This document shows positions 21,874 to 46,355 of a stretch of DNA of 60,646 nucleotides, in pieces. Numbering within the stretch: position 1 is the stretch's first letter; the number at the start of each line of letters is the position of its first letter. A program made the position numbers and the translations under genes. The notes under the pieces were generated by a model that did not search any database, was not told where the DNA came from, and saw only the letters and a program-made list of their open reading frames with translations. Source of the DNA: Polyangiaceae bacterium (GTDB lineage Bacteria > Desulfobacterota > Binatia > UTPRO1). The stretch spans positions 1-60,646 of the forward strand of contig JANNPN010000460.1 in assembly GCA_031400185.1 (NCBI GenBank), in the 5' to 3' direction.

Positions 21874-23676
21874 TCACGTTTCGCGAATCACCGCGACATC
21901 GACGGGGGCGCGGCGCGCCGCCCGGAGTTGCACCTTCCGCACGGCCGAACGGGCCGCGGCCGTGACGGTGAAGAGGTCGAGCGACGTCAGCTCCGCCGCA
22001 CCGAGGGACTCAGTCGCGAGGTCCGTCGGCGCGGAACGCGCGGCGGAACGCAGCGCACGGCGATGCGCCCCTTCGTACGTCAGGTACATCCGGAGAAGAC
22101 CCCAGTGCTTCGCCACGATCTCAGCCGCATACCGCGCGTAGAAGACCAGCGGGTTCTCGCGAAGGAGGCCGGGGCGCCGCTCGCGACGATACCTTCGCCG
22201 GAAAATGCCGCTGTCGAGGGGATGGATGCCCTCGATCGTCGCCGCGGCATGAAAGGAGAGCATCATCCACTTCATCTTGTTCGGATCGAATCCCCAGTCC
22301 GCAGCGCGGCGTATGACGGTCTCGACGTGCGCGGGCGTGTAGTAGGCGTCCCATGCTCGACGATAGACGCCCTGCCACTCGTCCTTCGACATGCGCGCAT
22401 GGGGCGCGGTCACGTGCACCGAGTCGTAGCGGTTCATGTCCGGCTCGAGCTCCACGCCGCGCGCGACGAGCTCTTTGTGATCCTGCGACCCGGGCAGCGG
22501 GGTCAGGATGAAGAACTCCAGGAGGTCGACCGGGAGCTCGCGCTGAATGATGCGGATGTCGCGCAGGATGCTCTCGGCGGTGTCGGTCGGAAACCCGAGA
22601 ATGTACCCGGCGAAGGTCAGGGCGCCGATGCCATGCCAGGCCTGCAACATCACGCGGTACTCGGTGATGTCGTTCTGGCGCTTCCGGGCCCCGTCCAATG
22701 CCTCCGGGTTGATGTTTTCGAGACCGATGAACACCCGGTCGACGCCCGCCTGGCCGGCCTTTTCGATGAAGCGTGGGATCTTGTGACAGAGCGTGTCGAC
22801 CTGGATCGTCATCGAGAACGCCAACCCCTCGGCGCGGAGCGCGATCATGCGATCGAACAGCGGCTCCCACGCCTTGTTTCTGGCGAAGTTGTCGTCGGTC
22901 ACGAAGAACTTGTGGACGCCTTGGGCGAGGTTGGCGCGGATGATCCGCTCGACGTCGTCGGCACTCCGGTGGCGCGACTTGCGTCCTTGCACGTTGATGA
23001 TGGTGCAGAAGCTGCAGAGAAACGGACAACCGCGCCCGGCATCGAAGCTCGTACGGGCGCCGGACATGCGGCGGATCTGCGCGATCGGCAGGTACGGGAC
23101 AGGCTGTTCCTCGAGCGCCGGCAGGTCCTTCATGTAATCGTAGAGCGGCTGCAGCTCGCCGCGGCTCGCGTCGCGGAGCAACGCGTCCAGGCGGCCCTCG
23201 AGCTCGCCGGCGTAGAGGGAGATGCCGCGCGCCATCGCCTGCGTGAGGTCGATGGGGAGCGTCGGGAGCATCGCGACGCACCCGCTCGTGTGAAACCCGC
23301 CGATCACGACGCGCACGCCGTGCGCGAGGAACTCCTCGGCAAGGTCGACGGCACGCGGAAACTGATTGGTCTGCACCCCGATCAGCAGCACGACGCCGCG
23401 TTCACCGGCGCGGGCCATTGCTGCGGCGATTCGCCGGGGTACGATGCGGGTGTTCGTCTCATCGTGGGCCGTGACGACGATGTCGACGTCGGGCCCGAGC
23501 ACCCGACGCTCGGCGCAGTCGGCGGTGAGCCCATAGACTGCCGCCATCGTGTTCGACGGGACGCTCGAGCGCGCCCACTGGATCACGTAGCCGTCGTCGT
23601 CGTAGTGCGACGGCTTGATCAGGACGACGCGGAACGTGCTCGTTGCTGCCGTTGCTTCCGTCCCCCTCGCGTCCAT
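21874..23676 (-). CDS. Cobalamin-binding (class B) radical SAM protein
   Basis: CPFLCSFC (CxxxCxxC); N-terminal B12-binding-like region IGVQTNQFPRA...VVIGGFH; FFVTDDNF; FIGLENIN. Confidence 0.88.
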   Translation of the reverse strand: MDARGTEATAATSTFRVVLIKPSHYDDDGYVIQWARSSVPSNTMAAVYGLTADCAERRVLGPDVDIVVTAHDETNTRIVPRRIAAAMARAGERGVVLLIGVQTNQFPRAVDLAEEFLAHGVRVVIGGFHTSGCVAMLPTLPIDLTQAMARGISLYAGELEGRLDALLRDASRGELQPLYDYMKDLPALEEQPVPYLPIAQIRRMSGARTSFDAGRGCPFLCSFCTIINVQGRKSRHRSADDVERIIRANLAQGVHKFFVTDDNFARNKAWEPLFDRMIALRAEGLAFSMTIQVDTLCHKIPRFIEKAGQAGVDRVFIGLENINPEALDGARKRQNDITEYRVMLQAWHGIGALTFAGYILGFPTDTAESILRDIRIIQRELPVDLLEFFILTPLPGSQDHKELVARGVELEPDMNRYDSVHVTAPHARMSKDEWQGVYRRAWDAYYTPAHVETVIRRAADWGFDPNKMKWMMLSFHAAATIEGIHPLDSGIFRRRYRRERRPGLLRENPLVFYARYAAEIVAKHWGLLRMYLTYEGAHRRALRSAARSAPTDLATESLGAAELTSLDLFTVTAAARSAVRKVQLRAARRAPVDVAVIRET

Positions 23677-23830
23677 GACGTGCCCCCCCGGTCCCGCGGA
23701 TCATCGATCGAATCGCAATCCGGGCGGTTCCGGACGACGGCGAAGGCTTCATGTTCTACCAGCCGGACGGACCCGGAGGAAACGTAGCGGCCGGCCAGCA
23801 CGGGCCCACCGCGCCTGCTATGACACGCCG

Positions 23831-25018
23831 GTGCTCGCCTACCGCCCGACCTGCCAGCGCTGCCTCCGGCCGACGTCCCACTGCTATTGCGCGCACTTGA
23901 CGCCGATTCCGAGCCGGACGCGCGTGGTCTTCCTGCAACACCCGCGCGAGTACCGGATGCCGATCGGCACGGCGCGGATGACGAACCTCGGGCTCGCGAA
24001 CTCCGAGCTGCACGTCGGCGCCGATCTGGACCTGCACCCGCGAGTCCGGATGCTGGCGGACGACCCGGGCGGCACCGCCCTCCTCTTTCCGGGACCCGGG
24101 GCGGTCGAGCCGTGGGCGCTTCCCGGCGGGCCGCCCGGGACGCTCGTGGTGCTCGACGGGACGTGGCTCCAGGCGCAGAAGATGCTCGCGCGGAGCCACC
24201 TGCTGCAGCGCCTGCCGCGCGTCGCCTTTACACCGCCGCGCCCGGGCGCCTACCGCATCCGCCGCGAGCCCGCGGCGCACTGTCTCGCGACCGTCGAGGC
24301 CGTCGTCCAGGTGCTCGGACGGCTCGAGAACGATCCCGACCGATTCACGCCGCTGCTGCGCGCGTTCGAGCAAATGGTCGAGCAGCAGCTCCACTTCAAG
24401 ACGGCGCGTCCGAACCCCTACTTTCACGCGCCGCGCGTCCGGCCGTCCGAGCGCGACCGCCTCCGGTCGCAGCTCGCAACGATCCGGGAGCACCTGGTCG
24501 TCGTCCACGCGGAAGCGAACTCACACGCGTGCGCGGCGCCCGCACCTGGCCCGCCCGAGCTCCTGCAATTGGTCGCGGAACGCCTCGCGTCCGGCGAGCG
24601 CTACGAGACCATGCTCGCACCGCGGCGGCCGCTCGCCGCGTCGGTACCGGCGCACCTCGAGTTGCCGCCCGAGCGCTTCGTCGGCGGCGAGGGCGTTGCG
24701 TCCGCCCGCGAGCGTTTCGCCGCCTTCCTTCGCCCCGGCGACCAGATCTGCGCCTGGGGCCGCTTCACGCCCGACCTCCTCCGCGCCGAAGGCTTCGTGC
24801 CGACGGCCGCAACGATCAACCTGCGCGCCGTCGCCGGGCGCGCGCTCCACGGCAGTCCCGGCGGCCCGGAGGACGCGGCGCGAGCGCTCGCCGCTGGCGG
24901 CAGCGCCCGCGCGCTCTGGACCGGGGGCCGTGCCGGGCGGCGGATCGCCGCGCTCGGTACGATCGTGGACGCGATCCTTGCATCCGCCGCAGGGCTGACA
25001 GCGCCCGACGCAGGCTGA
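23831..25018 (+). CDS. DTW-domain tRNA-uridine aminocarboxypropyltransferase (TapT/YfiP-like) with C-terminal degenerate DnaQ-like domain
   Basis: GTG 23831 start; CQRCLRP...CYC; FLQHPRE; VVLDGTW (DXTW); YRIRREP...LATVEA. There is an extra region of about 200 aa at the C-terminus. Confidence 0.85.
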   Translation: MLAYRPTCQRCLRPTSHCYCAHLTPIPSRTRVVFLQHPREYRMPIGTARMTNLGLANSELHVGADLDLHPRVRMLADDPGGTALLFPGPGAVEPWALPGGPPGTLVVLDGTWLQAQKMLARSHLLQRLPRVAFTPPRPGAYRIRREPAAHCLATVEAVVQVLGRLENDPDRFTPLLRAFEQMVEQQLHFKTARPNPYFHAPRVRPSERDRLRSQLATIREHLVVVHAEANSHACAAPAPGPPELLQLVAERLASGERYETMLAPRRPLAASVPAHLELPPERFVGGEGVASARERFAAFLRPGDQICAWGRFTPDLLRAEGFVPTAATINLRAVAGRALHGSPGGPEDAARALAAGGSARALWTGGRAGRRIAALGTIVDAILASAAGLTAPDAG

Positions 25019-26308
25019 CTACTGGAGCTCGAAGCGCTCGCGCAGAAGCCTCAAGAGCGCCACGTTGTCGCTGTGGCCGGTCATGCGCGCCGTCACGAAC
25101 CCGCGGAGCGGCCGGCCGAGTAGATAGAAGTCGCCGAAGACGTCGAGGATCTTGTGGCGCGCGAACTCGTCGGGGAAGCGGAGCGGCGTGTTCACGACCC
25201 CGTTCTCGCCGATCAGGATGCAGTTGTTGAGGCGCCCGCCGCTCGCGAGGCCCATCTTCTCGAGCGTCTCGATCTCGCGGAGGAACCCGAACGTGCGCGC
25301 CGGCGCGATCTCGGCCTTGAAGCGCTCGGTGTCGGTGAACTGGAAGACGTACTCCTGGCGCCCGACCGGCTTCGGGTAGTCGAGGATGTAGCGCACGCCG
25401 AAAACGTCGGCGGGCTCGATGCACAGGTACTCGCCGCCGCCGTCACGGTCGCCGATCTCGTAGCGACGGTCGATCACGATCTCGTCGACGTAGCCGCCCT
25501 GCTCTTCCACGCCCGCGCTCTCGATGAGCGCGCAGAATTCCGACGCGGAGCCGTCGAGGATCGGGATCTCCGACTGCATCTTCACGAGCAGGTTGGTGAT
25601 GCGGTAGCCGTGGAGCGCGGCAAGGAGGTGCTCGACGGTCTTCGCAACGATCCCGTTGTGGTACAGCGTCGTCGCGTAGCCGGTCGAGTCGACGTACTCG
25701 ATGCGGGCGGGGATCGTCGCCGCGTTCGAGATGCTGCCGAAGACGATGCCGCTTCCGGGCGGCAGCGGCTGCAGGATGAGGCCGGTGCGCACACCCGAGT
25801 GCAGGCCCTGCCCGTTCACGACGACGCTCCGTTGGATCGTCCGTTGCGTCCACGGCCACGGGCGCGCGAGGAGGCGGCGCTCGAGCGCGACGGCGCCCGC
25901 CTCGTCGGCGGCGACGGCTTCCGCGTCGATCCCGCCCGCGATCGGCCGCGCGTCGAGCGCGCGATCGACGACGTCGAGCAAGCCGTCCAACGAGAAGGGC
26001 TTCTCGATGAAGTCGAACGCGCCGAGCTTCGTCGCGGTGACGGCGGTCTCGATGTTGCCGTGGCCGGAGATCACGATCACCGGCGTCGACGGATGCGAGT
26101 CGCGGATGTGGCGGAGGAGCTCGATGCCGTCCATTCCAGGCATCCAGATGTCGAGGATCACGAGCCGCGGGTGCTCGTTCGCGATCAGCTCGAGCGCGCC
26201 CCGGCCGTCCTCGGCCTCGAGCACGCGATATCCCTCGTCGGCGAGCACCCCCCGGACGCTGCTGCGGATTCCGGCCTCGTCGTCCACGATGAGAATGGTC
26301 TTGTCCAT
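25019..26308 (-). CDS. lpxC: Response-regulator receiver domain fused to UDP-3-O-acyl-N-acetylglucosamine deacetylase
   Basis: Residues 1-120 form an NtrX-like REC domain (ILIVDDE, D53 in LDIWMPGMDG, SGHG, K103 in EKPF). From residue 155 it is LpxC: QRTI...GLHSG, TVEHLL, EIPILDGS, ARTFG, HKILDVFGD, GHSDN. It is one uninterrupted frame. Confidence 0.95.
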   Translation of the reverse strand: MDKTILIVDDEAGIRSSVRGVLADEGYRVLEAEDGRGALELIANEHPRLVILDIWMPGMDGIELLRHIRDSHPSTPVIVISGHGNIETAVTATKLGAFDFIEKPFSLDGLLDVVDRALDARPIAGGIDAEAVAADEAGAVALERRLLARPWPWTQRTIQRSVVVNGQGLHSGVRTGLILQPLPPGSGIVFGSISNAATIPARIEYVDSTGYATTLYHNGIVAKTVEHLLAALHGYRITNLLVKMQSEIPILDGSASEFCALIESAGVEEQGGYVDEIVIDRRYEIGDRDGGGEYLCIEPADVFGVRYILDYPKPVGRQEYVFQFTDTERFKAEIAPARTFGFLREIETLEKMGLASGGRLNNCILIGENGVVNTPLRFPDEFARHKILDVFGDFYLLGRPLRGFVTARMTGHSDNVALLRLLRERFELQ

Positions 26309-26316
26309 TGTTCCTC

Positions 26317-28614
26317 CTAGTGCAGGACGATTTGCTCGAGCGGCCCTTTCACCGGCAGCTCGACGACGAATCGGCTTCCCTGCGGCTCGTTGTCTTTGAC
26401 GCGCACGAACCCCTGATGATCCGCGACGATCGTCGACACGATGGCGAGACCGAGTCCGGTCCCCCCTTGCTTGGTAGAGAAATAGGGCTCGAAGAGGCGC
26501 CCGCGCTGCTCCGGGTTGATGCCGATCCCGGTGTCGGCGACCTCGAGCGCCACGAACCCGTGGGCGCGGTCGTAGTGCGTTCGCACGTCGATCCGCGGCA
26601 GCGTGCCGTTCACGCGCCGGCCGGAGCCGCCCGCGAGAGCGGACTCATTGCCCACCGCGTCGCAGGCCGCGACCGCGTTGTCGAGCATGTTGATGACGGC
26701 GCGCTTGATGCCTTCGCGGTCGAGCGGCAGCCGCGGCAAGTTCGGATCGCGCTCGAACCCGAAGGCGATCTCGCGATGTCCCTCGCGAAAGAGGACCATC
26801 GCCTCGTCGACCAGCACGTTCAGGTCTTCAGGGGTGTGCTCCCCTGCGGGCATGCGCGCGAAGGTGGCGAACTCGTTCACCAGCGTCTTCAGCTCCTCGA
26901 CCTGGCGGATGATCGTGCGCGTGCACTCCTCGAAGAGCGTCCCGTCCTCCTTCAAGCGCTCGGCGTAGCGCTTGTGGAGGCGCTGCGCCGAGAGCTGGAT
27001 CGGCGTGAGGGGATTCTTGATCTCGTGCGCGATCCGGCGTGCGACCTCGCGCCAGGCCTCCATGCGCTGGACCTTCACGATCTCCGTGACGTCGTCGCAA
27101 AACAACAGCGCGCCGAGCGCCTGCCCCGCGGCGTCGCGCAGCATCGTCGCGGAGAGCACGAGCGTCAGCATGCGGCCGCCGGCGAGGAGCTTCATCTGCC
27201 GCTCGACGCGCCCGCGCGCCGCCGCGAACGAGACGCCGGCGCGGAGCTCGGCGATCATTTCCCGGGCGGGTGCCAGATCCGAGCGCGCGAAGACCGCCAT
27301 GTAGTCGCGGCCGATCGCGGTCGCGCGCTCGATCACGAAGAGCCGCTCGGCGGCCTGGTTCAGCGTGGTGACGCGCCCGTCCGGACCGACCGCGACGACA
27401 CCGGCGGTGAGCTCGGCGAGGATGGTCTCCATCGTGCGGCGGCGCTGCTCGAGCTCGACGTTGCTGGTCTCGAGGTCGGCGGTCATCTGGTTGAACGCGG
27501 TGACGAGCGTCCCGAACTCGTCGTCGGGTGCCACCTGCGTCGCGTCGCCGAGCCCGATCCGGTACTGCCAGTTGCCCTGCGCGACCTCGCGCGTGCCCTC
27601 CGCGAGCTTCTGGATCGGCACCGTGATGCCCTTGGCGAGATAGAAGCCCATCCACGTCGCGCAGAAGATGACGAGCAGGGTCACGAGGACGAGCGTCACC
27701 ACGTAGTTGTTGGTGATCGGCTGCTTCAGGATCTTCAGCTGCCGATACTCCTGAAACGAGCGCGCGATGTCGGCGCTGCGCGTCGCGACGCTCTCGGGCA
27801 CGAAGTACTCGACGACGACCGCGCCTTCGATGCCGCGCGGTCCGGCGATCGGCACGGCGGCCCGGATCACGTCGCCGCGGCCCATCGTCTGGATACGCGT
27901 TTCGGGGCGGCCTTCGAGCGCCGCCGTGAGGAGCGGCGCCGACGGAACCAGCGCCGCCTCGTCCGGGACCGCTTCGGCGCGCGCGGTCGCACGGATGTCG
28001 CGGTCGAGCCCGAAGACCTGGATGGTCCCGACGTTGTACTCGCGCTGCTTGTCGGCAACGAGCGCCTGCAGCCGGTCTTTGGCATCCGCCCCGAGCAAGC
28101 CGTCCTCGCGCATGTGGCCCGCGAGTTGGCGCGCGTGCACGAGCGCGTTCTCGGACGCGTTCCGATAGTACGCCTGCGCGACCTCGAGCGAGCCGGAGAG
28201 CGAGCTCTCGACCTGCACGTTGAACCAGTTCTCGATCGAGCTCGTCATGAAGCCGAGTGCGACCAGGAAGATCAGGATCGCCGGGAAGATCGAGACGGCG
28301 AGGAACGCGAGCACGAGGCGCGTCCGGAGGTGCGAGCCGAGCATGCGGCGGCGGCGCTCGAAGACGAGCTTCAGGAGGTTGCGCGCCACCAGGAACACCA
28401 GCAGCACGAGAAGGATGATGTTGAGGTTGATGAGGAGGAAGAAGATGACGTTGTTGCTGAGCGAGTTGCTGCTCGAGAACTGCGGGAGGCGGGTCTCGAA
28501 GAAGGCGAACAGCAAGACCGCGAGCGCGGCCGACAGGATGATCAGGCCCTCGCGGCGGCGCTGGCGCTCCGCGGGGGGCTCGGGAGCAGTCGGTTGGGCG
28601 GCCGGGTTCGTCAT
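26317..28614 (-). CDS. ntrY: NtrY-like sensor histidine kinase (TM, periplasmic domain, HAMP, PAS, HisKA, HATPase)
   Basis: SHLRTRLVLAF; SSIENWFNVQVE; PIQKLAEGTREVAQGN; AWREVARRIAHEIKNPLTPIQLSAQRL; EPYFSTKQGGTGLGLAIV. Confidence 0.9.
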   Translation of the reverse strand: MTNPAAQPTAPEPPAERQRRREGLIILSAALAVLLFAFFETRLPQFSSSNSLSNNVIFFLLINLNIILLVLLVFLVARNLLKLVFERRRRMLGSHLRTRLVLAFLAVSIFPAILIFLVALGFMTSSIENWFNVQVESSLSGSLEVAQAYYRNASENALVHARQLAGHMREDGLLGADAKDRLQALVADKQREYNVGTIQVFGLDRDIRATARAEAVPDEAALVPSAPLLTAALEGRPETRIQTMGRGDVIRAAVPIAGPRGIEGAVVVEYFVPESVATRSADIARSFQEYRQLKILKQPITNNYVVTLVLVTLLVIFCATWMGFYLAKGITVPIQKLAEGTREVAQGNWQYRIGLGDATQVAPDDEFGTLVTAFNQMTADLETSNVELEQRRRTMETILAELTAGVVAVGPDGRVTTLNQAAERLFVIERATAIGRDYMAVFARSDLAPAREMIAELRAGVSFAAARGRVERQMKLLAGGRMLTLVLSATMLRDAAGQALGALLFCDDVTEIVKVQRMEAWREVARRIAHEIKNPLTPIQLSAQRLHKRYAERLKEDGTLFEECTRTIIRQVEELKTLVNEFATFARMPAGEHTPEDLNVLVDEAMVLFREGHREIAFGFERDPNLPRLPLDREGIKRAVINMLDNAVAACDAVGNESALAGGSGRRVNGTLPRIDVRTHYDRAHGFVALEVADTGIGINPEQRGRLFEPYFSTKQGGTGLGLAIVSTIVADHQGFVRVKDNEPQGSRFVVELPVKGPLEQIVLH

Positions 28615-28636: not shown

Positions 28637-28849
28637 TCATCGTCGGAAAAAGTAGGACATCAAGGAAAACACGAGGCTGAGGAGAAGACATGTTCCGAGC
28701 GGGAGGTAGACGGTCAGGCCGCCGGATCGGAAGGTGAAGTCCCCGGGCAGCCTGCCGAGCCACGGAATCCGGCTCGAGTAGGACACCAGAAGACCCGCAA
28801 CTACCAACACGAGTCCGACCAGGATGAGTGTGCGTCCCAACCCTCCCAT
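28637..28849 (-). CDS. DUF2905 family small membrane protein
   Basis: MGGLGRTLILVG...WLGRLPGDFTFRSGGLTVYLPLGTCLLLSLVFSL; the LGRLPGD and YxPxxTC motifs are typical of the family. Confidence 0.85.
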   Translation of the reverse strand: MGGLGRTLILVGLVLVVAGLLVSYSSRIPWLGRLPGDFTFRSGGLTVYLPLGTCLLLSLVFSLMSYFFRR

Positions 28850-28871
28850 CGTTCGGACCGGGAAAGGCCGG

Positions 28872-28900
28872 ATTCTAGGGGCCTTCCGAGGGCTTGTCCA
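28872..28900 (-). promoter_or_regulatory. Sigma70-type promoter for DUF2905-ntrY-REC/lpxC
   Basis: TGGACA (28900-28895), 17-nt spacer, TAGAAT (28877-28872). Confidence 0.7.
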
Positions 28901-28950
28901 TACAGACACGGCGCGTCATTTTCGTCTCCTCTTCGGCTGTGTACGACAGC

Positions 28951-29973
28951 TCAGAGTAGCCTGGCTTGGCTCCACCGGCTCGGCTCCGTGCGCCCGAAGT
29001 GCCCGAAAGCACGCTCGGTTACGACGCGGCCCTTGGGCGTGCGGGCGAGAAACCCTTCCTTGATCAGGTACGGCACGTAGACGTCCTCGATCGTATCGCG
29101 CTCCTCACCGACCGCCGCCGCGAGTGTATCGAGCCCGACCGGACCCCCGCTGAACTTGTCGATGATCGTGAGCAAGATCGCCCGGTCCATCTTGTCGAAC
29201 CCCCGGCCGTCGACCTCGAGGAGCTGCAGGGCGTCGGCGGCGACGGCCTGCGTGATCCGACCGCCGGCCCGCACCTCGGCGAAGTCACGTACCCGCTTGA
29301 GCAGGCGGTTCGCGATACGCGGCGTCCCGCGCGACCGCCGCGCAATCTCGACAGCGCCCCCCTCGTCGAGCGGCACCTTCAGGATCGCGGCGGAGCGACG
29401 GAGGATCAGACCCAGGTCGCCCTCGTCGTAGAAGTCGAGCCGGAAGTGGGCGCCGAAGCGGTCGCGGAGCGGCGAGGTCAGGAGACCGGTCCGCGTCGTC
29501 GCGCCGACGAGCGTGAAGGGTTTGAGCTCGAGCTTGAGCGTCCGCGCCGACGGCCCCTGACCGACGATGATGTCGAGCTGGAAGTCCTCCATCGCCGGAT
29601 AGAGCACCTCCTCGACGACGCGATTCAGGCGGTGGATCTCGTCGATGAAGAGAACGTCGCCGCGCTCCAAGTTGGTGAGGATCGCCGCGACGTCGCCGGG
29701 GCGCTCGAGCACCGGACCCGACGTGCAGCGGATCTGCACGTCCATCTCCTTCGCGATGATGTAGGCGAGCGAGGTCTTGCCGAGCCCGGGCGGCCCGGCG
29801 AGCAGCACGTGGTCGAGCACGTCGCCGCGCGCTCGCGCCGCCTCGATCGCGACCCCGAGGTTCGCTTTGACCGCCGTCTGACCGACGTACTCTGCGAGGC
29901 CGGTCGGTCGCAGCGACACGTCGAAGCCGGCGTCCTCGTCGGCGGAGAGCGGGTCGATGACGCGTTCGTTCAT
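28951..29973 (-). CDS. ruvB: Holliday junction branch migration helicase RuvB
   Basis: [29 protein letters not shown] and [12 protein letters not shown]. Confidence 0.98.
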
Positions 29974-30566
29974 GTGGCCAACCTCCGCAAGGCCTCCCGG
30001 ATGAGGTCGGCGAGCGCGCGGGTCCCGGCCTCCTCGGCACGGGCGACCGCATGCTCCGCCTCGTGCTGCTTGTACCCCAGGTTGACGAGCGCGGACACTG
30101 CCTCAGGCGCGTCGTCACCGATTCGGACGCTGCCCGTCGACGCGGCGGCGCGGCTCTGCTGCAGCACCCGCACCTTCTCGCGGAGCTGCAGGATCATGAG
30201 CTCGGCCTTCTTCTTGCCGATGCCCGGCACCGCGACGAGGCGCCTGACGTCGCCGTCGGCGATGGCGCTCTCGAGATCCGGCGTGTCCATGCCGGACAGC
30301 ACCCCGATCGCGACCTTGGGGCCGATCGTCGAGACCTGGAGCAGCAACAGAAACAGCGAGCGCTCGGCGGCGTCGGGGAAGCCGTAGAGCTGGAGCGCGT
30401 CCTCGCGGACGTGGGTGTGGACGAACAGGTCGACCTCCACGCCCGGGTTCGGCAGGCGGTAGAACGCGTTCAGCGAGACGAAGAGCTGATAGCCGACGCC
30501 GCCCGCGTCGACGACGATTTGCTCCGGCGCCTTCTCGAGCAGCCGGCCGCGGAGGCGCGCGATCAT
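29970..30566 (-). CDS. ruvA: Holliday junction DNA-binding protein RuvA
   Basis: [12 protein letters not shown]...GGVGYQL...[12 protein letters not shown]...VPGIGKK...[11 protein letters not shown] at 30566. Confidence 0.96.
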
Positions 30567-31102
30567 CGTCGCGCCGCCATCGACAGCACGGTCGCAAGGC
30601 GCGACGAGTACAGATGGCAGAGCGCGATCGCGAGCGCGTCGGCCGCGTCGGGCCGCATGGCCTCGACGACGCGGAGCTCGCGAACGATCGCGCGCTGGAC
30701 CTGCTCTTTCTCGGCGCGGCCGGTGCCGGTGACCGCGAGCTTCACGGTCGCCGGTGGATACTCGGCGATTGCGATGCCGGCGCTCGCCGCGGCGAGCAGC
30801 GCGATCCCGCGCACCTCGCCGAGGCGGAACGCGCTCTGCACGTTCCGGCCGACGAAGTTCTGCTCGAGTGCCAGTACGTCCGGACGCCAGGCGCCGCAAA
30901 GATCGGTGAGCGCGGCGTGGATCGCGGCGAGCTTCCCCGCGAGCGTGAGGCGCGCGTTCGGCGTGACGGCGCCGTGCGCGAGGTGGGTGACGGAGCCGGC
31001 GCGCCGCTCGACCACGCCCCAGCCCGTGACTGCGGTTCCCGGATCGACGCCGAGGACCCGCACGGGCGGCTCGGCTCGCCTGTCCCCTCCCCCCCTCGCC
31101 AT
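30563..31102 (-). CDS. ruvC: Holliday junction resolvase RuvC
   Basis: VLGVDPGTAVTGWG, LALEQNF, VKLAVTGTGRAEKEQV and DAADALAIALCH. Start is 31102 (ATG) or 31063 (GTG). Confidence 0.95.
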   Translation of the reverse strand: MARGGGDRRAEPPVRVLGVDPGTAVTGWGVVERRAGSVTHLAHGAVTPNARLTLAGKLAAIHAALTDLCGAWRPDVLALEQNFVGRNVQSAFRLGEVRGIALLAAASAGIAIAEYPPATVKLAVTGTGRAEKEQVQRAIVRELRVVEAMRPDAADALAIALCHLYSSRLATVLSMAARR

Positions 31103-31170
31103 GAGCCTCCCGTCAATCACAGGTGATCGTGTCCGATCACTACGCGCCCGGCGCTCGGGACCGGGGACCG

Positions 31171-31920
31171 CTATGCGCTCAGCCGCTCGACCTCGTCCTG
31201 CGGGATGTCGGCGTTCGCCGACACCTTCTGCACGTCGTCGTGGTCCTCGAGTGCCTCGAGCAGCTTGAGCGTCTGCTCGGCGTCCGACCCGCGGACCGTG
31301 ATCGTGTTCTGCGCCACCATCGTCACTTCCGCCGAGCCGATCGCGATGCCGGCCTGCTCGAGCGCGCTCTTCACGTCCTCGAGCGCGTCGGGCGGCGAGG
31401 TGACCTCGAACGCCTCGCCAGCGTCCGCGATGTCGTCGGCGCCCGCCTCGAGCGCGACCTCGAACAGCTTGTCCTCGGCGCTCGCGGCCTTGTCGACGGT
31501 AATGATGCCCTTCTTCGAGAACATCCACCCGACGCAACCGTTTTCACCGAGGTTGCCGCCGTTCTTGCCGAAGAGATTGCGGATCTCGGCGACGGTGCGG
31601 TTCCGGTTGTCGGTGAGGATCTGGAGCATGATCGCGACGCCGGCGGGACCGTAGCCCTCGTACTGCACTTCCTCGTACGTCACGCCCTCGAGCTCGCCGG
31701 TGCCCTTCTTGATGGCGCGCTCGATGTTGTCGTTCGGCATGCTCTGCGAGCGCGCCGTCGTGACCGCCGTTCGCAGACGCGGGTTGGCGTTGATGTCGCC
31801 GCCGCCCATGCGCGCGGCGACCGTGATCTCCTTGATCAGCTTGGTGAAGATCTTGCCGCGCTTGGAGTCCTTGAGCGCCTTCTTGTGCTTGATCGTGCTC
31901 CACTTGGAGTGGCCGGACAT
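31171..31920 (-). CDS. yebC: YebC/PmpR family protein
   Basis: [34 protein letters not shown] and DDVQKVSAN. Confidence 0.97.
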
Positions 31921-32085
31921 GACGTTCCCTTTCCCCGTCACGCGCCGCTCGGAACGGGCTCGTCCCTCGGTCGGCGGGTCCGATCGGATGTGGGATTTCT
32001 CGGCGTTGCGCCGATCGGACGGGTAGAGGCTCGTTACCACAGGGCCCGCGAACAAGTAAACGTCGGCGCGTCCGTGCGAATCTAC

Positions 32086-32114
32086 TTGTCGGCGGCCGAC
32101 CTCGTCGCTAGAGT
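32086..32114 (+). promoter_or_regulatory. Sigma70-type promoter of rlpA
   Basis: TTGTCG, 17-nt spacer, TAGAGT, 9 nt upstream of ATG 32124. Confidence 0.55.
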
Positions 32115-32123
32115 CCGCCGCGC

Positions 32124-32798
32124 ATGGGGTGGTGGTGGGGTGAGGTCGCGGGGCGGCGTGGCCGTCGGCATGCGTGGGCATTGTCGTTTGCGCTGGCGAC
32201 GGCAGTGCTCGCCGGGTGCGGCCGCACCGTCGTCGCGCCGACGCCGGGCCATCCGCAGAGCGGCGTCGCGTCGTGGTACGGACCGGGCTTCCACGGGCAA
32301 CCGACCAGTAGCGGCGCGATCTACGATCAGCACGCCCTCACGGCGGCGCACCCGAAGCTTCCGCTCGGCACGCGCGCGCGCGTCACCAACCTCGACAACG
32401 GCAAATCCGTCGAGGTCCTGATCAACGACCGCGGTCCGTTCGCAAAGGGTCGCGTCATCGACCTCTCGTACGCGGCCGCGCGCGAGGTCGGCATGGTCGG
32501 CCCCGGTACCGCGCGCGTGCGGATCGACGTGACGGCCCGGCCGGCCAACGGCGCGTCGCATGTCGCCTACTGCGTCCAGGTCGGCGCGTTCAGCGAGGAG
32601 GAGAAAGCACGATCGCTGCGCGCGCGCCTCGTCCCGCAATACGACGACGTCTACATCAGCCCCGTGCAGGCCCAGTCGGACCGCATGTACCGCGTGCGCG
32701 TCGGGCCGTACGCGGAGCGCGAGCGCGCCGAGAGTTACGCCCAGACGCTCGCCGAGCTCGGTCTTCCGGCGGTCGTCACCGAAGAGCCGCAGCGGTGA
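32124..32798 (+). CDS. rlpA: Septal ring lytic transglycosylase RlpA (DPBB plus SPOR), lipoprotein
   Basis: Lipobox LAGC; [12 protein letters not shown]...[11 protein letters not shown]...INDRGPF..GRVIDLS; SPOR motif VQVGAFS...YRVRVGP. Confidence 0.95.
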
Positions 32799-45053: not shown

Positions 45054-46355
45054 GTGCTGCGGCTGACCATTCTCCTCTCTTCGATCGTCGCGGCGCTCAT
45101 TGCCGTCGGGTATTTACTGCACCTGAATCCCGCCCCGGTCACCGTCCACTTCACCCCGACGACCGAGTGGCAGGGTCCGCTCCCACTCGTGCTGCTCGGC
45201 GCGTTCCTCGTCGGCGCCGGTGTGACGTTCCTCGCGTCGCTCGTCCGCGCGAGCCGCACGGCCGTGACGGGCTGGCGTGCCGAGCGCACGGCGCGTCGAC
45301 AACGCCGCCAACAGATTCGCAAGGAGCAAGGCCTCGGCTTCGCGTGGCTCGGCGAGCACGACAAGGCGCGCACCGCGCTCGCGAAAGCGCTCCGCGACGG
45401 CCCCGACGATCTCTCCGCCTTCTTGATGTTCGCGCGCACCTACCTCGAAGAGGGCGATTTCCGCGGGGCGCGGACGGTGCTCGAGGAGGGCCTCGACCGG
45501 CGCGGTCCCGATCCGAAGTTGCTGCTGTTTCTCGCCGAAGCGCAGCGCGGCAGCGGCGACGTCGCCGCGGCCATCGAGACCCTCGAGCGGGCACGGCGCG
45601 CCGATCCCGCGAGCCCGCGCGTGCTGACCGCGCTCCGCGACGCGTACACCGCGAGCGCGCGCTGGAAGGACGCGGGCCGCGTGCAGGAGGCACTCCTGCT
45701 CGTCGTCCACGACCCGCCCGTCCGCGCCGACACCGAGCGGACGCTCATCGGCATGCGGTACCAGAGCACGCTCGAGATCACCGATCCCGCGGCGCGCGTC
45801 GCCGAGCTGCGCGCGCTCCTCCGTGCCCACCCGGACTTCGAACCGGCTGCGGTGAGCCTCGGCGACGCGCTTCTGGCCGCCGACCAGCCGCGTCAGGCCG
45901 AGCGTGTCTGGCGTCGCGCCGTGATCCGCGGTGCGCGCGGCGGCACGCTCGAGCGCCTCGAGCACCTGCTCGCCGGCGGTCCGCGCGCGCGCCGTCTCGA
46001 CGTCTTCACCCGCCGTCTCCTCCGCCGCCGTCCCGACGACGGCACCGCGCGACTCTTCCGCGCCCGTCAGCTCATCCGTGGAGGCCAGCTCGACGAGGCC
46101 GCTGCCGAGCTCGCACGCGTCGGACCCCCGTGGAACTCCCTCGCGAGCTATCACGGCCTCCTCGCCGAGCTGCACGTCCGCCGCGGCGCGCAGGAGGATG
46201 CCGTGCGCGCCTTCCGCCACGCGCTCGCGGCGTGCGCCCTCGGGGTCTTCCACTGCCAGGTGTGTGGCGCCGAGAGCGAAGAGTGGCAGGGCTACTGCGA
46301 GCGCTGCCGCAGCTGGGACAGCTACCGCTCGAGCTACGAGGCGCGCACGAGCTGA
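45054..46355 (+). CDS. LapA-domain/TPR/rubredoxin protein (LapA-LapB-like fusion)
   Basis: N-terminal TM-loop-TM (LNPAPVTVHF...PLPLVLLGAFLVGAG), multiple TPRs, and C-terminal CQVCG...W.GYCERCRSW rubredoxin-like Zn/Fe knuckle. Confidence 0.75.
   Translation: MLRLTILLSSIVAALIAVGYLLHLNPAPVTVHFTPTTEWQGPLPLVLLGAFLVGAGVTFLASLVRASRTAVTGWRAERTARRQRRQQIRKEQGLGFAWLGEHDKARTALAKALRDGPDDLSAFLMFARTYLEEGDFRGARTVLEEGLDRRGPDPKLLLFLAEAQRGSGDVAAAIETLERARRADPASPRVLTALRDAYTASARWKDAGRVQEALLLVVHDPPVRADTERTLIGMRYQSTLEITDPAARVAELRALLRAHPDFEPAAVSLGDALLAADQPRQAERVWRRAVIRGARGGTLERLEHLLAGGPRARRLDVFTRRLLRRRPDDGTARLFRARQLIRGGQLDEAAAELARVGPPWNSLASYHGLLAELHVRRGAQEDAVRAFRHALAACALGVFHCQVCGAESEEWQGYCERCRSWDSYRSSYEARTS

Follow-up and report, generated by a model that had tools for sequence, protein, structure and literature searches.

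LpxC catalyses the committed reaction in the synthesis of lipid A, is the control point of lipopolysaccharide (LPS) production and is a leading antibiotic target. To our knowledge, all controls of LpxC characterised so far belong to three kinds: proteolysis (FtsH/LapB/LapC), activation by another protein (MurA) and transcription. Among the transcriptional systems, NtrYX acts in R. sphaeroides and C. crescentus as a repressor of lpxC and reduces their LPS (PMC7240162; PMC12444477), and loss of NtrYX in alphaproteobacteria leads to an increase in both lpxC mRNA and LPS (PMC7240162). In D. vulgaris, the NtrC-family regulator of the DVU2931-DVU2934 system has lpxC as its single target, and in S. 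fumaroxidans lpxC adjoins an operon orthologous to DVU2931-DVU2934 (PMC3333781). Here we describe a two-gene locus from a 60,646-nt stretch of DNA (the window; all coordinates given below are positions within it), contig JANNPN010000460.1 of the Polyangiaceae bacterium assembly GCA_031400185.1, in which the gene for an NtrY-like sensor kinase is followed by a gene encoding a receiver (REC) domain fused to LpxC. The locus had been pointed out in an earlier examination of the DNA without database searches (the sequence-only reading), and we have followed it up by computational analysis.

The system most closely related to this locus is NtrY/NtrX, known from Brucella abortus (structures 4d6x and 5m7n), R. 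sphaeroides and C. crescentus. The window kinase has the NtrY layout, the receiver is closest to that of NtrX, and long relatives of the window protein carry the whole of NtrX, i.e. REC, an AAA+ domain without the GAFTGA motif and a Fis-type helix-turn-helix (HTH). However, whereas NtrX is known as a DNA-binding transcription factor acting indirectly on lpxC, the window protein is without AAA+ and HTH and its output is LpxC in the same polypeptide. The DVU2931-DVU2934 system is likewise an lpxC-dedicated two-component system, from the same broad bacterial group, and the S. fumaroxidans arrangement matches the unfused lpxC-ntrY-ntrX operons described below, but it acts by transcription with separate proteins and not through a single fused polypeptide. 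The locus differs again from the enterobacterial FtsH/LapB/LapC(YejM) control and the MurA control of P. aeruginosa, in that its LpxC is without a degron, LapC is unmatched, the LapB-like protein is distant, and the proposed input is a built-in His-Asp phosphotransfer. The features of the fusion gene are as follows.

25019..26308, minus strand: REC-LpxC fusion gene, 429 aa in one uninterrupted frame (Response_reg and LpxC Pfam matches)
25949..26308, minus strand: receiver (REC) domain, aa 1-120, NtrX-type (PF00072, NCBIfam and PDB matches)
25847..25948, minus strand: linker, aa 121-154, about 35 aa, predicted to be disordered (pLDDT, consensus)
25022..25846, minus strand: complete LpxC (UDP-3-O-acyl-GlcNAc deacetylase) domain, aa 155-429, with the stop codon at 25019-25021 and no C-terminal tail (PF03331, TIGR00325)

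The receiver gives a PF00072 Response_reg match over aa 5-114 (117.7 bits) and contains D9, D10, D53, S81, F100, K103 and P104, the codon of the phospho-acceptor D53 being located at 26150-26152. Judged by the PF00072 model together with the quintet of acidic pocket, acceptor Asp, Ser/Thr and Lys, this is a receiver in full, and D9, D10, D53, S81 and K103 are invariant across 116 homologues. The sequence-only reading had assigned it to the NtrX type, with D53 and K103 in an intact pocket, and this was correct: the best NCBIfam receiver match of the fusion is NtrX (NF051870, 145.7 bits), and the closest solved structures are Brucella NtrX 4d6x and 5m7n. Membership of NtrX proper, which we define by AAA+ without GAFTGA, a Fis-type HTH and a score of at least 600, does not extend to the window protein, which scores 145.7 and in which Pfam detects neither an AAA+ nor an HTH match. 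Because these modules are missing here but present in relatives of 720-745 aa, the window protein is a derivative of NtrX and not a member of it. The linker, whose length of about 35 aa had also been read correctly, has a predicted local distance difference test (pLDDT) score below 50 for aa 122-148 in the AlphaFold2 model, matching the absence of conserved residues from the consensus. It varies in both sequence and length, other short forms having linkers of roughly 26-70 aa, and ends in a short helix followed by the conserved P-x-QRT start of LpxC.

The LpxC part is covered by PF03331 from aa 155 to 422 (269.8 bits against a cut-off of 27) and scores 234.6 bits with TIGR00325 (cut-off 187.25), so that both LpxC models recognise it. 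Alignment with the P. aeruginosa enzyme bore out the claim that all zinc and catalytic residues are in place: E226/H227 (TVEH), T339, H385/K386/D389 (HKILD), D393 and H412 correspond to E77/H78, T190, H237/K238/D241, D245 and H264, which include the general base, the zinc ligands and the general acid of that enzyme. The zinc ligands and catalytic residues (H227, H385, D389, E226 and H412) are invariant across the same 116 homologues. Indeed, the predicted fold agrees, as the modelled LpxC part superposes on A. aeolicus LpxC with a template-modelling (TM) score of 0.94 and a root-mean-square deviation of 1.8 A and has the two-domain beta-alpha-alpha-beta fold. The question of whether the genome holds another lpxC, raised by the sequence-only reading, is answered by a single PF03331 match in the 7.07-Mb, 100%-complete genome, at the fusion gene, which makes this the sole LpxC. 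The remainder of the lipid A pathway, namely lpxA, lpxD, fabZ, lpxB, lpxK and msbA, was found elsewhere in the genome. The fusion is therefore predicted to carry the UDP-3-O-acyl-N-acetylglucosamine (GlcNAc) deacetylase of this organism, with the indirect support of being the only LpxC alongside lpxA, lpxD, lpxB and lpxK. Two LpxA-like genes are present, on contigs C110 and C388 of the same genome; they share 47% and 40% identity with LpxA of E. coli, and one lies beside fabZ.

Conservation of the fusion was assessed within its class, which is Candidatus Binatia in public records, the close homologues being labelled Candidatus Binatia or "Deltaproteobacteria bacterium". The combination of PF00072 and PF03331, which the sequence-only reading had proposed as a search, recurs throughout: the fusion was found in all 40 relatives searched, from 13 families and 26 genera of the class and at identities down to 53%, and these include near-complete assemblies of 2-20 contigs; full-length copies occur across the 13 families. 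Both Pfam domains are also found on all 120 best database matches, which come from many independent metagenome assemblies. In a few relatives with very few contigs the fusion gene is broken by an in-frame TGA or frameshifts (G007:C1:757460-758749; G017:C1:2689064-2690333; G014:C9:481713-482982; L046 3005-5667), and these interruptions are most likely long-read indel errors, not pseudogenes.

The kinase gene and its junction with the fusion gene have the following features.

26317..28614, minus strand: NtrY-like sensor histidine kinase, 765 aa (Pfam NtrY_N, HAMP, PAS_4, HisKA and HATPase_c)
27715..28242, minus strand: extracytoplasmic sensor domain of the kinase, aa ~125-300, single-Cache/PDC fold predicted (AlphaFold2 and Foldseek)
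26313..26318, minus strand: Shine-Dalgarno AGGAGG, overlapping the kinase stop TAG (26317-26319) and 5 nt before the fusion ATG (read from the sequence)

Both open reading frames (ORFs) were verified where the sequence-only reading had placed them, as a co-directional pair on the minus strand with a gap of 8 nt between the kinase stop and the ATG of the fusion gene, and in the window the fusion gene is translationally coupled to the kinase gene. The kinase has the NtrY-type layout throughout: hydropathy gives three N-terminal transmembrane helices, an extracytoplasmic region (aa ~125-300) and a fourth transmembrane helix, followed by HAMP, PAS, HisKA and HATPase_c, with an NtrY_N match of 27.8 bits (cut-off 23.2) of partial coverage. 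Its phospho-acceptor is His530, within the motif HEIKNPL. An AlphaFold2 model of the extracytoplasmic domain, built from 11 sequences (pLDDT 85.0, predicted TM (pTM) score 0.74), shows a long helix that leads into a sheet of five strands, and its top Foldseek matches are the extracellular domain of WalK (4ywz, 7dud), then CitA and DcuS, with TM-scores of 0.5-0.76. With these as the best structural matches, the domain is read from the model as a predicted single-Cache/PDC sensor. WalK is the cell-wall sensor kinase of Firmicutes; the predicted likeness of the periplasmic domain to it is at the level of fold only (TM-score about 0.5-0.7).

The neighbour of this kinase is REC-LpxC and not a canonical NtrX transcription factor. 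The genome has one kinase with this NtrY-type N-terminal region, and of its 18 NtrC-family regulators none lies beside an NtrY-type kinase and none is closer than 44% identity to the fusion receiver. REC-LpxC is therefore the only obvious partner of the kinase. The synteny with ntrY that the sequence-only reading had suggested checking across relatives was found in every case, an NtrY-like kinase lying directly upstream of REC-LpxC in 20 of the 20 distant class members examined. In the window, the two genes are preceded by a yebC/ruvC/ruvA/ruvB/(DUF2905) block at 28637-32181 on the minus strand, and the order and strand of ruv block, ntrY-like gene and REC-lpxC are kept in 14 of the same 20 members, with yebC undetected in two, so that Holliday-junction genes are linked to this operon. 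On the other side, the REC-LpxC gene abuts, end to end at 25018/25019, the convergent gene of a DTW-domain protein (23615-25018, plus strand; 467-aa ORF, Pfam DTW at aa 77-259), whose roughly 200-aa C-terminal extension matched no family.

When 1.84 billion representatives were searched exhaustively and without a profile, the window protein proved to stand at the reduced end of a large NtrX-LpxC family, whose members are annotated in databases as LpxC or NtrX. Many proteins of 650-745 aa have a receiver match at the N-terminus and an LpxC match at the C-terminus, and in the long forms (about 730 aa; 720-745 aa) Pfam finds REC, Sigma54_activat, AAA_lid_14 and LpxC in turn. In an alignment of 14 long forms, Walker A is kept, GAFTGA is absent and Walker B has Asp-Ser/Ala in place of Asp-Glu, and the QRT at which LpxC starts is preceded, at a distance of about 12 aa, by a Fis-type HTH. 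By these features the long forms are a complete NtrX-like regulator fused to LpxC. Intermediates also exist, as REC-HTH-LpxC proteins of 505 and 491 aa and as forms with a decayed AAA+. When distribution was surveyed in species-representative genomes, long forms were found in Thermodesulfobacteriota, Nitrospinota, Desulfomonile and unclassified metagenome-assembled genomes (MAGs), those of their cluster members with organism labels being from Nitrospinota only. Binatia, among them MAGs that carry the label Syntrophobacter and nest within Binatia, have short forms, as do Acidobacteriota (Thermoanaerobaculia, Holophagales and Terriglobia). An unfused lpxC-ntrY-ntrX operon was present in three genomes, a 'Deltaproteobacteria' MAG and two Acidobacteriota MAGs (L053 1619-6359, L062 293-5273 and L066 1149-6341), each with a single lpxC. 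As Thermoanaerobaculia hold both the unfused operon and the short fusion, horizontal replacement of the native lpxC is implied in some lineages. Sixteen other genomes that bear the fusion were searched, and in 15 of them the fused gene was the sole LpxC; the exception, a Terriglobia genome (G056, which contains locus L065), also has a stand-alone LpxC in a 334-aa frame (315.7 bits).

A maximum-likelihood tree of 137 LpxC domains placed all 50 stand-alone LpxC sequences, including those beside a free ntrX, on one side of a branch of length 0.44 with 100% support in the Shimodaira-Hasegawa-like approximate likelihood ratio test, and every fused LpxC, long, intermediate or short, on the other. 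Long forms are intermingled with short ones among the fused sequences, and four or more changes of state are required by branches with strong support; for example, the REC-HTH-LpxC protein P0132 is sister to the long P0131, and the short P0139 groups with the long Desulfomonile clade. The Binatia fusions form one clade (28 rows, 96%), so that the shortening occurred a single time, at the base of the class, and the short forms from Acidobacteriota are a clade of their own (100%). When the NtrX parts were used to build a tree, the clusters of the LpxC tree emerged again, with free NtrX apart from fused NtrX. The simplest history would be one in which lpxC was linked to an ntrYX operon, a single fusion produced NtrX-LpxC, and AAA+ and HTH were then lost repeatedly and independently, the receiver being retained through at least four such losses. 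We rejected the converse, a short ancestral form into which AAA+-HTH was inserted repeatedly, because REC, AAA+ and HTH jointly make up an uninterrupted NtrX and the tree built from the NtrX part returns the clusters of the LpxC tree. The sequence-only reading had supposed that the gene arose by deletion of the NtrX core between adjacent ntrX and lpxC genes, and this part of it fell: an already fused NtrX-LpxC later lost AAA+ and HTH, as the long and intermediate forms attest, and the unfused gene order is lpxC-ntrY-ntrX and not ntrX-lpxC. Given descent from a full-length NtrX-LpxC whose AAA+ and DNA-binding modules were lost, the receiver-LpxC pair is the part that selection preserves.

Taken together, the architecture points to direct control of outer-membrane synthesis by phosphorylation. 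We consider it reasonably probable that LpxC is tuned post-translationally through phosphorylation of D53 by the kinase beside it. The proposed device would consist of two genes: a membrane kinase would sense a condition at or across the envelope and transfer phosphate to D53 of a receiver that is tethered covalently, via the flexible linker, to the only LpxC of the cell. Most probably the receiver would pack on LpxC in one state and be released or re-oriented in the other, possibly with receiver dimerisation. The version that we prefer is direct gating of LpxC catalysis, for which we infer the phosphotransfer, the effect on LpxC and its sign. There is precedent for such a layout, since CheB, the GGDEF proteins PleD/WspR, the HD-GYP protein RpfG and RssB share with the window protein an N-terminal receiver, a flexible linker and a catalytic domain. 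In CheB and other receiver-enzyme regulators the receiver packs on the catalytic domain and is then released or re-oriented, and the logic expected here is accordingly a phosphorylation-dependent relief of inhibition or a dimerisation. The outputs of CheB-type regulators, however, are signalling enzymes, whereas in the window the output is LpxC, a housekeeping enzyme of biosynthesis that is the only one of its kind in the cell and presumably essential. The repression of lpxC by NtrYX in R. sphaeroides and C. crescentus provides an independent functional link for this proposal, and the D. vulgaris regulator dedicated to lpxC and the unfused lpxC-ntrY-ntrX operons speak for it as well. More tentatively, a wider generalisation may be possible, namely that an NtrY-family envelope sensor gates catalysis of the sole LpxC by His-Asp phosphotransfer, independently of transcription and proteolysis, in several phyla (Binatota, Thermodesulfobacteriota, Nitrospinota and Acidobacteriota), and that the ancestral job of NtrYX was lipid A homeostasis and not nitrogen control.

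The core of the sequence-only reading, a two-component system apparently wired to LpxC in a manner of which no characterisation is known, is thus backed by comparative evidence: the ancient and conserved fusion, its status as sole LpxC, the kinase in 20 of 20 class members, the acceptor Asp in 94 of 97 fused proteins, and a literature search in which no paper describing a REC-LpxC or NtrX-LpxC fusion was found. Neither "fusion" nor "response regulator" occurs in a 2025 review on how lipid A is regulated, which gives NtrYX only as a transcriptional regulator of lpxC. Response regulators with enzymatic output are already known, but one with the committed lipid A enzyme as its output is described in no paper that we found.

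The structural model is relevant to the question of how the receiver might act. The AlphaFold2 model of the whole protein, built on a 116-sequence alignment, has a pLDDT of 85.8 and a pTM of 0.80, and LpxC alone would explain about 0.61 of the chain (TMq). Since the whole-chain value is the higher, it suggests that the predictor gives REC a defined position against LpxC, the placement that CheB-like intramolecular docking would produce. Several points nevertheless weigh against the control that we propose. The case for docking from pTM is an indirect one, and rigid helical coupling is ruled out by the length, variability and disorder of the linker. Fused and stand-alone LpxC differ at five positions only (T175, G176, K243, C259 and L365), and these were dropped as a candidate docking site, as they outline no interface and no obvious surface patch. 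An adjacent NtrY-type kinase is absent beside the fusion in Acidobacteriota and Nitrospinota, and the organisms are uncultured. Finally, FtsH (55% identity) and a LapB-like protein are both present, which leaves room for proteolytic control of LpxC.

This last point bears on the alternative that fares best, although we think it unlikely: the receiver might govern the stability of LpxC, its phosphorylation state exposing LpxC to, or hiding it from, FtsH with the LapB-like adaptor, Lon or ClpXP, so that enterobacterial logic would be placed under two-component control. E. coli controls its LpxC by proteolysis, and some alphaproteobacteria probably do so with Lon (PMC12444477). In the window, 19 kb from the fusion, 45054-46355 (plus strand) encodes a 433-aa protein with two N-terminal transmembrane helices (LapA-like), tetratricopeptide (TPR) repeats and a C-terminal CQVC-x10-CERC knuckle, resembling rubredoxin, in the layout of LapB. 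It scores 17.8-22.7 bits with the LapB models, against cut-offs of 363-474. On sequence features it is possibly a divergent LapA-LapB fusion and is a candidate partner or counter-regulator of REC-LpxC, but the low scores and the lack of any match to LapC/YejM in the genome tell against an enterobacterial type of proteolysis. So does the C-terminus of the fusion, which stops about 7 aa past the Pfam LpxC domain without an FtsH degron tail, whereas P. aeruginosa and E. coli LpxC run about 20-25 aa further.

A distinctly unlikely alternative to direct gating concerns assembly or location, where LpxC would be moved into or out of a complex with other lipid A enzymes, its intrinsic catalysis unchanged, either by receiver dimerisation through alpha4-beta5-alpha5, known from NtrX and PleD, or by binding to the kinase at the membrane. 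NtrX receivers, including the closest structures 4d6x and 5m7n, dimerise, the flexible linker suits tethering, and a LapB homologue has been proposed to localise LpxC in N. meningitidis (PMC12444477). Against this, the pTM of 0.80 suggests contact between REC and LpxC within a monomer. Moreover, LpxC is generally known to be active as a soluble monomer in all species studied.

We regard as very unlikely the view that the receiver is vestigial, a leftover of the NtrX fusion without effect on LpxC or a phosphate sink for the kinase, with LpxC constitutive and regulated elsewhere. Domain decay is common in the family, in which AAA+ and HTH have decayed repeatedly, and the acceptor Asp has been lost in three of the 97 fused proteins. 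However, of these 97 proteins, which come from all lineages, 94 retain the Asp and 96 the Lys, and the receiver with its invariant acceptor pocket has been kept across several phyla while neighbouring domains were lost. The kinase adjoins the fusion in all 20 class members examined, and an extension of 150 aa that served no purpose on an essential enzyme would not have remained intact for so long. The three acceptor-less proteins are P0144 (N), P0146 (S, together with K to Q) and P0215 (E), the first two being sisters in the LpxC tree; D to E is the classical phosphomimetic change, and all three could be natural locked-state variants. That an assembly or gene-calling artefact joined two genes, as might be suspected in a draft of 473 contigs, is practically inconceivable, misassembly being refuted by the conservation of the fusion across the class, with the same uninterrupted frame in 41 of 41 related genomes and the fusion in many independent metagenome assemblies.

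If the proposed control is correct, a receiver as an integral part of the only LpxC in whole phyla would constitute a fourth, structurally simple mode of control of this enzyme. The fusion is a physical link, at the level of the gene, between NtrYX and lipid A, and it explains the envelope and LPS phenotypes of alphaproteobacterial NtrYX mutants. The series that leads from full-length NtrX-LpxC down to REC-LpxC would clearly exemplify how a transcription factor is turned by steps into a post-translational regulator of an enzyme and, again if the proposal holds, these fusions would serve as a Rosetta stone for an ancestral role of NtrYX across phyla.

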